In this document: piece after piece, positions 33,262 to 43,268 of the stretch | Layout: each line of letters begins with the position of its first letter | How positions within the stretch are numbered: position 1 is the first letter of the stretch | DNA from: Escherichia phage SKA64 | Direction: 5' to 3' (one strand) | DNA: 64,000 bases | Sequence record: OM362897.1 | Program-made: the position numbers and the translations under genes | The notes under the pieces: generated by a model | The model's input: the letters and a program-made list of their open reading frames with translations, nothing else | Database searches by the model: none | What the model was told of the DNA's origin: nothing

Positions 33262-33696
33262 ATGTTACAAGTTCCTGCTAAGTTTGTTGAAGGCGCTATC
33301 CACTCTTACCGTCAAACATGTAAGAGGGCAAGAAACTGTTTAGATGGTCTGGTGGCAAAAACCTATACTGTTGAAAAGAAGAAACGTTGGTTTGGCAAAG
33401 ATGTTTACGAAGTTAATATTTTTGGTGAACATAAACTAAACCACGATACTCCTGAAAACATGTTAGAAATATTTCTAAGAGATGACAAAATATCTCCTAT
33501 GGATTACCAACTTTTAAAATTTTATGATTCTTCTTTGGCTATTGATAAGTTTGTTGAAGATATTCTGTCTAGAAAAACAGATAAAAACACTTATCCTCTA
33601 GAAGCTGATCAAATAGGATTATTAAACGAGATTTCATCCTTTAAAGAGTTGGATAATATTACAAAAGAGGAGATTTTAGATGGCATTAGATTATGA
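33262..33696 (+). CDS. hypothetical protein
   Basis: 144-aa ORF. Confidence 0.35.
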   Translation: MLQVPAKFVEGAIHSYRQTCKRARNCLDGLVAKTYTVEKKKRWFGKDVYEVNIFGEHKLNHDTPENMLEIFLRDDKISPMDYQLLKFYDSSLAIDKFVEDILSRKTDKNTYPLEADQIGLLNEISSFKELDNITKEEILDGIRL

Positions 33697-34189
33697 TCGC
33701 CCAACGAGCGATTATTATCCAACACCGCAAAAAGCAATCAATAGTTTGTTTAGTGTTATAGATTTCAAAAATCTAAAGGAAGAAGGTTGGGTTTTTGCAG
33801 AACCTTGCAGAGGTGAAGCTGAAGCGATTTATCGCCATTTTCCTGAAGGTTCAGAATATTGCGAACTTGAAGAAGGTAAAGATTATTTTAGTCATGAATG
33901 GGAAAATCGTCCCGACATTATAATCACAAATCCTCCATTTAAGTTAGCAATGGAGTTCTTGGAAAAGAGCTTAAAAGAGGCGGATGTTTGTATTTATCTT
34001 CTTCGGTTGGGCTTCTTGGAGTCAAAGAAACGACGAGAGTTCCATCAAAAGAATCCACCAACAAACCTTATAGTCCTTTCAGAACGGCCTTCGTTTGTTG
34101 CAGGTGGAACAGATAAGACAGCATACGCTTGGTATGTATACGACCCAAAGAATCGTTTGGGCCTCTCTCAACCATTTTATTTTGTTTAA
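33680..34189 (+). CDS. small N6-adenine DNA methyltransferase-like protein
   Basis: IITNPPF (motif IV) and N-terminal YYPTP. Confidence 0.5.
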   Translation: MALDYDRPTSDYYPTPQKAINSLFSVIDFKNLKEEGWVFAEPCRGEAEAIYRHFPEGSEYCELEEGKDYFSHEWENRPDIIITNPPFKLAMEFLEKSLKEADVCIYLLRLGFLESKKRREFHQKNPPTNLIVLSERPSFVAGGTDKTAYAWYVYDPKNRLGLSQPFYFV

Positions 34190-39268: not shown

Positions 39269-40210
39269 ATGGTGTTAATTGGTAGCCGTGCATTACAAAT
39301 TCATGCTATGGACATGGGAAAAGACTTGTATCGCCCTTGTGTAGATTTAGATTACCTGTGTACAGAACAAGAGTGGGAAGAATTATCAAAAATGTTCTCT
39401 CAAGACGAGTTTGTTGAACTTGTAGAACGTAAAGGGAGCAAAGGCCATGTCAAAATGATAGCTGGTGCACATTTGGAATACGATATTGCTTCTCAAGGAG
39501 ATAGCACAGAAGCTTTGATTAGTTATTGTGAAGATTCTGATGATGTTCGTCGAACTTACGCTGGACATGTTGTTGCTCCTTTAGATGTGCTCTACCTTCT
39601 TAAAATGAGTCATCGTTTTAAAAAGGATAGTCCTCACTTCTTTAAAACTATGAAAGATATTCATTTCATGCGGTCACTGGGCGCAAAGATCCCAGAAAAT
39701 CTTAAGAGTATTTATGAGTTGCGTGAGAAAGAAACATACACTTACTCTCATCCGAACTTAAACGTAAAAAGTAAAGAGTTCTTTAAAGGTGACGAGGTTC
39801 CGTATGTTTATGATCATGATTCTATCCATGAAGCAATCGCGTTAATGGATGCTCCAGCATATAAATCTTATATGAAAGATGGAAGTGAAGTTATGACCAG
39901 CAAAGAAAAGTTTTTTGCTCAACCAAAACATGTGCGGCTGTTAGGTGTTTATGAAGAAGCGTGTGTTTTGGCTTTGGAACGTTCACAAATTCCTTTCGGT
40001 GAAGAGATCGGAGGTCCAACCCCTAAGCAAAGTTTTATAATGGCTTTATCTAAAGTCTGCACATCCATCACTAGTGGTTGGTTTAGGGAATATGCTTGGG
40101 AAAACTTTTATGTTGTTATTAAGCTATATGAAAACATGGGCGAAAACGACTATGTTGAACGTTTTAAAGCTAATCAACATGTAGTAAAGCCTTTTGAAGG
40201 AGGTTATTAA
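39269..40210 (+). CDS. hypothetical protein
   Basis: 313-aa ORF. Confidence 0.4.
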   Translation: MVLIGSRALQIHAMDMGKDLYRPCVDLDYLCTEQEWEELSKMFSQDEFVELVERKGSKGHVKMIAGAHLEYDIASQGDSTEALISYCEDSDDVRRTYAGHVVAPLDVLYLLKMSHRFKKDSPHFFKTMKDIHFMRSLGAKIPENLKSIYELREKETYTYSHPNLNVKSKEFFKGDEVPYVYDHDSIHEAIALMDAPAYKSYMKDGSEVMTSKEKFFAQPKHVRLLGVYEEACVLALERSQIPFGEEIGGPTPKQSFIMALSKVCTSITSGWFREYAWENFYVVIKLYENMGENDYVERFKANQHVVKPFEGGY

Positions 40211-40607
40211 TATGTGTGGATATCTTTCAGAAAGTTATTTCAAAGTGACGCATGAGGATTTAGAAAAAGCACGATTGAAACTGACAGCTATTATTGAATA
40301 CTCTAATACTGTTGAACACAGATTAAAGACTACTAAAGTATCTGTTCCTTGTTGGTTAGGTTTACGGCATAAAATAATGTCTCAACATGACCATGTTGTT
40401 CGAGAGATGCATGGTTGGTGTTGGTTTCACGATGTGGCTCTGCATTTTGGTTATATTACAGAAGAAGAGCATAGATTCTGTGAACTAACATATCGTATTC
40501 CAACCCTTCACGATTTAGATTTGTGGAAGAAAGCAAACGAGATTTTTCTTACAGAAAGTGATTGGCGTAAAGTTATGGCTTGTCTTGAATGGAGGGGTAA
40601 TGAGTAA
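40194..40607 (+). CDS. hypothetical protein
   Basis: 137-aa ORF. Confidence 0.35.
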   Translation: MKEVINMCGYLSESYFKVTHEDLEKARLKLTAIIEYSNTVEHRLKTTKVSVPCWLGLRHKIMSQHDHVVREMHGWCWFHDVALHFGYITEEEHRFCELTYRIPTLHDLDLWKKANEIFLTESDWRKVMACLEWRGNE

Positions 40608-41283
40608 AACAGTTTTGTCTATGTTTGACGGATCTGGGATCATGGTGTTACGTTATGCCGAAGCAGGTCACAAGTGTTTTTGTGTAAACGCTGATGAAGG
40701 GGATCACGGTAAATACGAGGTTAGGATGGAGCACCCAAACATAACCTATGTGAATGCCTGGATAGATTCTACATTCAACCCTGAAGATCATGGGATACCT
40801 AAACCCGATATTATTTTTGGATTTCCACCTTGTACTATGTTAGCAGGTAGTGGTAGCAAACACGAACGTAGCACAGAGGAATTAGATGAAGCTTTAGCTA
40901 ATATTCGTGTAGTGGAAGCTTTGGGTAACAAATATAATGTTCCTTGGATGATTGAGAACCCAGTAGGTAAACTTTCAACCTTATGGCGTAAACCCGATTT
41001 TTACTTTGATCCTTATGAATATGGTGGGTATTTGTTTGAAGAGGAAGGAAGCTTTCATCCTAAAATGCCTACCCGTGATGGGTATACAAAGAAAACTTGT
41101 ATTTGGCACGGCAATGGTTTTGTTCAACCAGTGAAGAAACCAGTAGATCATATAGGCTGCTTCTGGGGTTGGAAAAGCTTAGGTGGAGCTAGTGCAAAAA
41201 CAAAACAACTTAGATCCCTAACCGCACGTGGTTTTGCTCGTGCCGTGTTTTTGTCTAACAATCTTCTAGATAAGGAGAAATAA
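40600..41283 (+). CDS. DNA cytosine-C5 methyltransferase-like protein (compact)
   Basis: LSMFDGSG (motif I-like), GFPPCT (PC motif), WMIENPVG (ENV-like). ATG 40600 after ggagggg. Confidence 0.45.
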   Translation: MSKTVLSMFDGSGIMVLRYAEAGHKCFCVNADEGDHGKYEVRMEHPNITYVNAWIDSTFNPEDHGIPKPDIIFGFPPCTMLAGSGSKHERSTEELDEALANIRVVEALGNKYNVPWMIENPVGKLSTLWRKPDFYFDPYEYGGYLFEEEGSFHPKMPTRDGYTKKTCIWHGNGFVQPVKKPVDHIGCFWGWKSLGGASAKTKQLRSLTARGFARAVFLSNNLLDKEK

Positions 41284-41979: not shown

Positions 41980-42483
41980 ATGGGAGGAAATATGTTTCAA
42001 GTAGAAATTCATGTGCACAACAGTTGTTCAAATTGCGAGACTTGTGGTTACAATAGTTCAACCATGATCACTATTAGCGGAGACTTAGGAGATGCCAAGT
42101 TTGGCGAAGTCGCAAGCTGCTTCAGCGGAGAGGATGCAGATTGGCATGATATTGCACACTGGTTGGTGAGCAAACTAAAAGAAAAAGAGAAACCATTTCC
42201 TACTCTGCTTGATCGTTCTCTTGTGGAAGATGCAGGTAAAGCATATGCAGACTATGCGTATGCAGACGGGAAATATTTGGAAGATGATAAGGCTAACCAT
42301 TTGCTTTATGTTTACTATGAAGCTGAATCTGCCTACGATAATTATTACAGCATGTCCAACATTCTACGTTTGTTTGCGGAGTTTGATATTTACTTTGAAG
42401 TGAGTTATTCTCAAGACGAAGTGTACGATTTGGATGACGAAGATTATGATGATTATGAGGAGGAAGAATGCCAAGACGATTAA
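41980..42483 (+). CDS. hypothetical acidic protein with CxxC pair
   Basis: 167-aa ORF, CSNCETCG near the N-terminus, very acidic C-terminus. Confidence 0.35.
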   Translation: MGGNMFQVEIHVHNSCSNCETCGYNSSTMITISGDLGDAKFGEVASCFSGEDADWHDIAHWLVSKLKEKEKPFPTLLDRSLVEDAGKAYADYAYADGKYLEDDKANHLLYVYYEAESAYDNYYSMSNILRLFAEFDIYFEVSYSQDEVYDLDDEDYDDYEEEECQDD

Positions 42484-43268
42484 TAGTGATCAGCGGCGCG
42501 GGTCTAAGCGCCGATAGCGGTGTACGTACTTTCCGCACTGACACAGAAAGTGGCAAAGCTTTGTGGGATGAATACGACCTTTCTGAAGTGTGCGACATTT
42601 TCAACTTCCGTGCTGGATACCAACAAGAACAGTGTGTTCCTGGGGCTGTTGGCGGATTAGATGCAGAGGGATACAACCTCTACCGTAAAACTCATGACTT
42701 CTACAATAAACGTCGCGTAGAGATGGATAGTGTAACTCCTAACGCTGCGCATTACCAGATCGCGGAATGGTTCCAAGAGTACGGCTGTGATCGTGTTATC
42801 AACATCACGACAAACGTAGATGATCTTCTGGAACAAGCAGGTGTTGTTCATGAAGATGTTCTACATGTTCACGGCTTCCTGCCTGAAGTGATCGTAGACA
42901 ATAGAATCATCAAAGATGTTGGCTATGCTGCTATCGATGTGGATGATTACAAGTATGTGAAGCCCAATGTAGTGTTCTTTGGGGAGACTGCCCCATTGTA
43001 TAACGATATGTACCACATCTTAGACGGCTTGACGGCTCAAGATATGGTGATTGTAGTGGGTTGCTCTAATCAAGTTATCAATTTTAACTGGGAGCTTTTT
43101 CCTGCTCTTAACATCGGAACAAAAATGGTTGTAGTTAACCCTGGAGTTAATTACGAAGAAACACTTCTCTATGAAGATCGTGGAGTTTTTGTTTACCGAG
43201 AAAAAGCTGCAACAGCCTTCAGCAATGAAGGTTTCATTAAAATGGTCGAAGACCACTTAAACAAATAA
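42468..43268 (+). CDS. Sir2-like (sirtuin family) NAD-dependent protein
   Basis: ISGAGLSADSGVRTFR near the N-terminus resembles the sirtuin NAD-binding signature. Confidence 0.55.
   Translation: MPRRLIVISGAGLSADSGVRTFRTDTESGKALWDEYDLSEVCDIFNFRAGYQQEQCVPGAVGGLDAEGYNLYRKTHDFYNKRRVEMDSVTPNAAHYQIAEWFQEYGCDRVINITTNVDDLLEQAGVVHEDVLHVHGFLPEVIVDNRIIKDVGYAAIDVDDYKYVKPNVVFFGETAPLYNDMYHILDGLTAQDMVIVVGCSNQVINFNWELFPALNIGTKMVVVNPGVNYEETLLYEDRGVFVYREKAATAFSNEGFIKMVEDHLNK

Follow-up and report, generated by a model that had tools for sequence, protein, structure and literature searches.

The gene and its product

An open reading frame (ORF) in a 64,000-nucleotide stretch of DNA from Escherichia phage SKA64 (sequence record OM362897.1; the whole stretch is hereafter called the window) encodes what is very probably an orphan, phage-borne DNA cytosine-C5 methyltransferase that depends on S-adenosylmethionine (SAM) and belongs to the compact Dcm-like family phrog_757. 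A preliminary description, made from the letters of the window alone, had placed a C5-methyltransferase-like gene with a minimal target-recognition region here, starting at 40600 and encoding about 228 residues. According to both the ORF list and the raw sequence, the gene opens on the + strand with the ATG at 40600 and is closed by TAA at 41281-41283, for an actual count of 227 residues. The start held up, since a Shine-Dalgarno-like GGAGGGG lies just upstream of this ATG; a longer, GTG-started version of the ORF beginning at 40558 found no support in the N-termini of homologs. On its upstream side the gene shares 8 nt with an ORF that runs to 40607, and on its downstream side 1 nt with an ORF that begins at 41283, the tight packing typical of phage operons. 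Coordinates of the gene, of its parts and of three other genes in the window are collected in Table 1.

Table 1. Positions of the methyltransferase gene, its motifs and structural elements, and three other genes of the window
Feature	Position	Strand	Basis
Coding sequence of the probable compact Dcm-like C5 cytosine methyltransferase	40600..41283	+	ORF; phrog_757; at least 99% nucleotide identity to annotated Phapecoctavirus genes
Shine-Dalgarno-like GGAGGGG, ending 1 nt before the ATG	40592..40598	+	Sequence reading
Motif I FDGSG, aa 9-13, end of strand beta1, predicted SAM-binding glycine loop	40624..40638	+	Aligned to M.HaeIII FSGAG
Motif IV GFPPCT, aa 74-79, predicted catalytic Cys78 (codon 40831-40833)	40819..40836	+	Aligns with M.HaeIII PPC and KarlJaspers C82
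Motif VI ENPVG, aa 119-123, Glu119	40954..40968	+	Strand 116-121 of model; equals E128 of K42/KarlJaspers Dcm
Insert between beta6 and beta7, aa 137-161	41008..41082	+	Model secondary structure; conservation profile
Y162-T-K164-K165-T166 and strand beta7, aa 162-171, at the place of motif VIII	41083..41112	+	Model; family alignment
Post-beta7 loop, aa 172-198, about 27 residues	41113..41193	+	Model; nothing else stands where a target-recognition domain would be
C-terminal helices, aa 199-220, at the position of motifs IX/X	41194..41259	+	Helices 199-205 and 210-219 in model
Second methyltransferase gene of very small size, 169 aa, with the amino-methyltransferase motif N-P-P-F at aa 74-77	33680..34189	+	phrog_799 'DNA methyltransferase', E 2.8e-59, only positions 206-373 of 458; Pfam EcoRI_methylase and MTS, sub-threshold only
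313-aa DUF7277 + DUF7275 protein, two genes upstream	39269..40210	+	Pfam E 1.8e-13 and 1.2e-75; phrog_2141
Phage Sir2-family gene, 1.2 kb downstream	42468..43268	+	Pfam SIR2 E 6.5e-20; phrog_2162 E 1e-101

Read codon by codon, the motifs FDGSG, GFPPCT and ENPVG stand in the order expected of a C5 methyltransferase, as the preliminary description had it, and this set of motifs in this order is far beyond chance. Motifs I and VI are as far apart as in classical enzymes such as M.HhaI, and the ~100 residues that are missing relative to the classical enzymes all lie after motif VI. Within motif I, residues D10, G11, S12 and G13 are invariant in close homologs, and distant members have a degenerate version (F-D-x-T-G). 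An AlphaFold2 model built on 39 homologs (predicted local distance difference test, pLDDT, 88.8; predicted template modeling score, pTM, 0.88) has a complete beta1-beta7 methyltransferase core. In a structure comparison the model scored highest against DNMT3B (13.9, with 191 residues superposed at 3.3 A), followed by the prophage C5 methyltransferase 3g7u (12.3), CmoX (8yf3; 12.2), DNMT3A (11.8), M.HhaI (11.5), M.MpeI (11.0) and M.HaeIII (10.8), and Foldseek concurred (DNMT3B/3A, E-value about 3e-7). The protein thus has a class I Rossmann-like methyltransferase fold whose nearest known representatives are C5 methyltransferases.

Conservation was assessed over 67 diverse members of the family, 31-57% identical to the SKA64 protein. 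The predicted catalytic C78, whose absence from an alignment would have counted against the preliminary description, is invariant in all 67, as are E119, P121, P138, Y162, K164, T166, W169, P177, R205 and T208, while N120, S206, P209, G211, F212 and A215 are conserved in at least 90%. Strand beta7 occupies aa 166-171 and is followed by only ~27 residues (aa 172-198) before the C-terminal helices, which carry the signature R205-S-x-T208-P/A-R-G211-F-A-x-A215-V and which, judging from order and fold, would be equivalent to motifs IX/X. No target-recognition domain separates motif VIII from motif IX, and 191 of the 227 residues are already superposed on the DNMT3B core. The insert between beta6 and beta7, which we regard as a candidate DNA-contact loop, ranges from 6 to 26 residues in the family; its first residues (P138, YGGYL) are conserved, and it contains an acidic loop (aa 146-152) that varies. 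The two least conserved internal stretches of the protein, this acidic loop and aa 184-194, are the prime candidates for loops that read the bases.

A family of compact methyltransferases and its tested relative

The window comes from a phAPEC8-like Phapecoctavirus. A megablast search with the gene identified 64 phage records with 95-100% identity, nearly all of them Escherichia Phapecoctavirus (e.g., phAPEC8, tuntematon, ukendt and ESCO13), in which the gene is variously labeled 'DNA methyltransferase', 'Dcm', 'putative site-specific DNA methylase' or 'hypothetical protein'. The kind of gene is therefore already known: it is annotated in near-identical phages, and the activity of a relative has been published (see below). 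The match to phrog_757 ('DNA methyltransferase') was nearly full length, with aa 1-225 aligned to profile positions 13-223 of 247 (E-value 1.8e-84), and membership in this family (phrog_757 / VOG4567) is apparent in the 227-residue length and in PPCT at 76-79, ENP at 119-121 and RSLTA at 205-209. The family is marked by P-x-C-T in place of P-C-Q, by E-N-P in place of E-N-V and by the C-terminal sequence R-S-x-T-P-R-G-F-A; at the position of the family's P209 the SKA64 protein has Ala. By tblastn we found matches in 1487 GenBank phage records (about 3% of phage records), spanning Drexlerviridae, Klebsiella Webervirus, Kagunavirus, rV5-like myoviruses, Vibrio phages and others. A word-indexed protein search returned 870 homologs with E-values down to 2e-157, and an exhaustive profile search returned 1872 clusters (50% identity) at E-values of 1e-3 or less, 764 of them at 1e-10 or less. 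Since the best 150 representatives were mostly 200-260 residues long (median 230), the small size appears to be a property of a large and old phage family and not the result of truncation. The preliminary description's remark that the protein leaves scant room for a target-recognition domain therefore applies family-wide; the spacing between P177 and R205 is 23-45 residues in 67 of 67 members.

The longer members of the family carry additions, not recognition domains. One of 548 residues (P0260) is interrupted by an intein with Hint and LAGLIDADG domains, and one of 348 residues (P0216) has a C-terminal HNH nuclease domain. In BFVD the compact module also occurs within helicase proteins of 1100-1400 residues from uncultured phages. 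In the P1-like phage D6 (NC_050154, 2471-4049) a 226-residue family member lies directly upstream of a second methyltransferase gene, with an 8-nt overlap, and the annotation likens this second gene to the C-terminal half of P1 Dmt. That the family is itself this half of Dmt was considered and rejected, as D6 has a family member beside a separate gene of that kind.

The relative with experimental support comes from phage K42 (Drexlerviridae), whose genome is reported to be 95.4% identical to that of the BASEL phage KarlJaspers (bioRxiv 10.1101/2023.08.16.553469, later published as Wang et al., Cell Rep 2024;43:114857). In that study all K42 mutants that escaped retron Ec86 had disruptions in a 711-bp 'Dcm-like C5 cytosine methyltransferase' gene, and a Dcm was encoded by 34 of 35 Ec86-sensitive phages, with no Phapecoctavirus mentioned. 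Expression of K42 Dcm was toxic only with the retron, no toxicity being seen in retron-free mcrBC+ MG1655, and it led to high 5-methylcytosine (5mC) in the multicopy single-stranded DNA (msDNA) of the retron by liquid chromatography coupled to mass spectrometry (LC-MS), the nucleosides being from the DNA part; a C82A/E128A/K175A/K176A mutant was inactive (10.1101/2023.08.16.553469). Retron Ec86 was not self-activated in dcm+ MG1655, where control msDNA had low 5mC, and changing CCTGG in the msDNA stem to either ACTGG or CATGG abolished defense (10.1101/2023.08.16.553469). The CCWGG site of K42 Dcm was assumed by analogy with E. coli Dcm and was not mapped at base resolution (10.1101/2023.08.16.553469).

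We aligned the SKA64 protein to the KarlJaspers counterpart (MZ501090, bas06_0055, QXV82308.1; 711 bp) over aa 5-220 of 227, with 50% identity and an E-value of 1e-71. C78 aligns with C82, E119 with E128, and K164/K165 with K175/K176. The two proteins share family and architecture (227 vs 236 residues), and both are orphan early phage genes, although the K42 and KarlJaspers lineage is a Drexlerviridae siphovirus and SKA64 is a Stephanstirmvirinae myovirus. The variable loops at aa 146-160 and 178-196 are also dissimilar, and because of this the K42 target site need not apply to the SKA64 protein. Taken together, the fold, the invariant Cys and Glu and the 50% identity to a homolog reported to produce 5mC in DNA bear out the preliminary description of the protein as C5-methyltransferase-like with a minimal recognition region.

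Better known systems are more distant. E. coli Dcm and M.EcoRII (CCWGG, PF00145) would share the chemistry, having motifs I, IV and VI in like order; however, E. coli Dcm has 472 residues, with a complete recognition domain and with PCQ, ENV, QxRxR and GN in canonical form, and comparing the family profile with the single sequence of E. coli Dcm (hhalign) gave only a 23-residue match around motif IV with a probability of 1.9%. The SKA64 protein is not an orthologue of E. coli Dcm, and the label 'Dcm' carries no tested specificity. M.HhaI and M.HaeIII are longer (about 327-330 residues), and the small domain with the target-recognition domain that they have after motif VI is missing in the phage enzyme. 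DNMT3A and DNMT3B, the nearest in fold, are 14-19% identical to the SKA64 protein, have a methyltransferase domain of about 280 residues, form a dimer or tetramer with DNMT3L and read CpG.

Activity, specificity and alternative readings

From the fold and the conserved residues we propose that the seven-stranded core would bind SAM via motif I and that the target cytosine would be flipped out of the DNA, whereupon Cys78 (P-C-T, motif IV) would attack C6, with N3/N4 held by Glu119 (E-N-P, motif VI), and C5 would receive the methyl group. With no separate recognition domain, the DNA may be read by the short loops at aa 146-161 and 172-198, in the manner of DNMT3 with its small target-recognition domain. 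We infer an anti-restriction role, in which early expression of the enzyme would serve self-protection of the phage DNA against cytosine-sensitive restriction, and a side effect could be that the activity is detectable by retron sensors of the Ec86/Eco1 type.

Several observations weigh against a DNA cytosine-C5 methyltransferase. Neither the QxRxR of motif VIII nor the G-N of motif X is recognizable in the SKA64 protein. It scored 11.6 bits against Pfam PF00145, where the cutoff is 22, and only over aa 4-92 (motifs I-IV); this profile was touched by only 8 of 39 close relatives at an E-value below 1, and an NCBIfam search with the SKA64 protein found no match. The experimental evidence for 5mC comes from a protein that is 50% identical and differs in the putative recognition loops, and the K42 study used a dcm+ host, followed no modification but 5mC and assumed the site (10.1101/2023.08.16.553469). 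As to motif VIII, the quadruple mutant of K42 Dcm suggests that lysines may functionally replace QxRxR. In the profile check proposed in the preliminary description, PF00145 stayed below its cutoff and phrog_757 was matched near full length. KarlJaspers bas06_0055 likewise falls below the Pfam threshold (E-value 0.27), and since this homolog fails too, the sub-threshold score of the SKA64 protein is not evidence against activity. The Pfam hits of bas06_0055 and of diverse members were otherwise sub-threshold and confined to motifs I-IV, but in a separate scan of diverse members one (P0064) scored 27.3 bits against PF00145, above the cutoff. Searches of PDB sequences with the single protein and two family profiles gave at best M.HaeIII (E-value 0.081; aa 5-87 of the SKA64 protein) and DNMT2 (E-value 0.18), in the N-terminal half only, and neither Pfam nor PDB profiles ever aligned the C-terminal half to known enzymes.

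One alternative is that a group other than methyl is placed on C5 of cytosine, e.g., a carboxymethyl group from Cx-SAM in the manner of CmoX, as a first step of DNA hypermodification. We consider this very unlikely, as the likeness to CmoX is no better than that to ordinary methyltransferases and the homolog raised 5mC by LC-MS. CmoX (PDB 8yf3) also differs in having 333 residues, the motif SPPC, a carboxylate-binding Arg at the position of the motif X Asn, and linkage to cmoA and a ligase, whereas the SKA64 protein has F-P-P-C and not S-P-P-C, no CmoA homolog was found in the 64-kb window, and there is no ligase or CmoY-like gene among the neighbors. An RNA (tRNA) m5C methyltransferase on a DNA-methyltransferase fold, for which DNMT2 is the precedent, seems slightly less probable still: DNA enzymes scored clearly higher than DNMT2 in the structure comparison (13.9-10.4), the effect of the homolog depends on a DNA stem-loop in the msDNA, and the modified nucleosides came from the DNA part. 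The preliminary description had offered two substrates, and of these we favor DNA. For the other, methylation of a free nucleotide (dCMP or dCTP) before incorporation, only the small size and the absent recognition domain speak, and its probability is close to negligible, for the homolog expressed alone modifies pre-formed, polymeric msDNA, no dCTPase, dCMP-kinase or other nucleotide-pool gene adjoins the gene, and the avoidance of restriction sites described below argues against wholesale replacement of cytosine. The known phage enzymes that modify dCMP at C5 are, to our knowledge, thymidylate-synthase homologs, which also counts against a nucleotide substrate.

Taking the SKA64 protein as a DNA cytosine-C5 methyltransferase, a CCWGG-like target is the leading guess, made by analogy and somewhat short of an even chance; for the short motif suggested in the preliminary description, this 5-bp site is the sole proposal in print for a relative. 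As host Dcm leaves the retron silent and control msDNA low in 5mC, the phage enzyme would seem to do something that the host enzyme does not, be it higher activity, another cytosine or another substrate form. The lack of toxicity in retron-free mcrBC+ cells would fit a product that McrBC (RmC) does not take as a substrate, e.g., CmCWGG. A refinement of the DNA-methyltransferase reading, which we hold to be possible but rather doubtful, is that this is a genuine DNA C5 methyltransferase with a specificity or substrate unlike that of host Dcm, e.g., through a motif that is shorter, methylation of CCWGG at its outer C, or a preference for hairpins or single-stranded DNA. Such a difference would explain why Ec86 is silent in dcm+ cells and yet fires with the phage enzyme, msDNA 5mC being low until that enzyme is expressed, and it is consistent with the mere ~27 residues at the position of the recognition domain and with the nearest fold, DNMT3, reading only CpG. 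Against it, RmC products are unlikely to be frequent, given that mcrBC+ cells showed no toxicity, and both the ACTGG and the CATGG changes abolish defense, though contacts of the effector could be the cause. With similar reserve we suggest that the ~227-residue family may represent the minimal natural DNA C5 methyltransferase, one whose two short loops would read the DNA, perhaps in a dimer like that of DNMT3, and whose specificity or substrate form would be unlike that of host Dcm.

For annotation as such the value of these findings is small, the label in near-identical phages already being DNA methyltransferase or Dcm. The family is an abundant one that escapes Pfam and NCBIfam, however, and automated pipelines often call its members 'hypothetical'. 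Recognition by about 50 loop residues with no recognition domain would be relevant to phage anti-restriction and to sensing by retron Eco1, and the protein could possibly be of use as a very small methyltransferase scaffold.

Restriction words and genomic surroundings

We counted restriction words over the window (1-64000, both strands) against a maximal-order Markov expectation. Neither CCWGG (61 vs 71 expected) nor GATC (286 vs 301) was avoided, counts that are compatible with methyl-protection of both sites. Strongly avoided were GTAC (60 vs 176), GGCC (28 vs 68), CCGG (26 vs 60), CCSGG (0 vs 8), GACATC (0 vs 18.8), CTGCAG (0 vs 11) and GGATCC (0 vs 9.5), and CTCAG/CTGAG occurred only twice (at 3878 and 28233) where 46.5 were expected. 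We rejected such avoidance as a means of inferring the target, since the effects of host and phage methylation are inseparable in it and the motif cannot be named. Klebsiella phage KP36 (Webervirus) was reported to be without a cytosine methyltransferase, yet its DNA resists EcoRII (PMC3620542); this resistance was likewise set aside as evidence on specificity, being confounded by host Dcm. By tblastn many Klebsiella siphophages of Webervirus size (about 50 kb) encode a family member, often unannotated. Set beside the KP36 report, this points to a family that goes unseen by Pfam and NCBIfam and hence is systematically under-annotated.

No restriction endonuclease lay beside a family gene in any context examined, and all of these contexts, those in Drexlerviridae included, were phage or prophage; copies in Salmonella and Bdellovibrio are in prophages, with no adjacent restriction enzyme or Vsr. 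The Phapecoctavirus copy sits in an early-gene block. In tuntematon it is gp211 (YP_009986614), within a long block of small same-strand genes; the genes on either side encode proteins with no known function, and a Sir2-family gene follows 1.2 kb downstream. For the genes next to the methyltransferase gene in the SKA64 window, the only matches were to DUF7275/DUF7277 or to PHROGs that have no known function. A recognition partner acting in trans was considered and rejected, as the neighbors are unrelated and not shared with Drexlerviridae and K42 Dcm is active when expressed alone; a split enzyme of the M.AquI type was rejected as well, as the protein carries its own C-terminal helices resembling motifs IX/X.

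The three other genes listed in Table 1 are side observations. The product of the second very small methyltransferase gene has, like the C5 enzyme, no obvious recognition domain, and its tuntematon counterpart (gp229) is annotated as a DNA methyltransferase. For the Sir2-family gene downstream, a part in NAD+-related counter-defense is conceivable.

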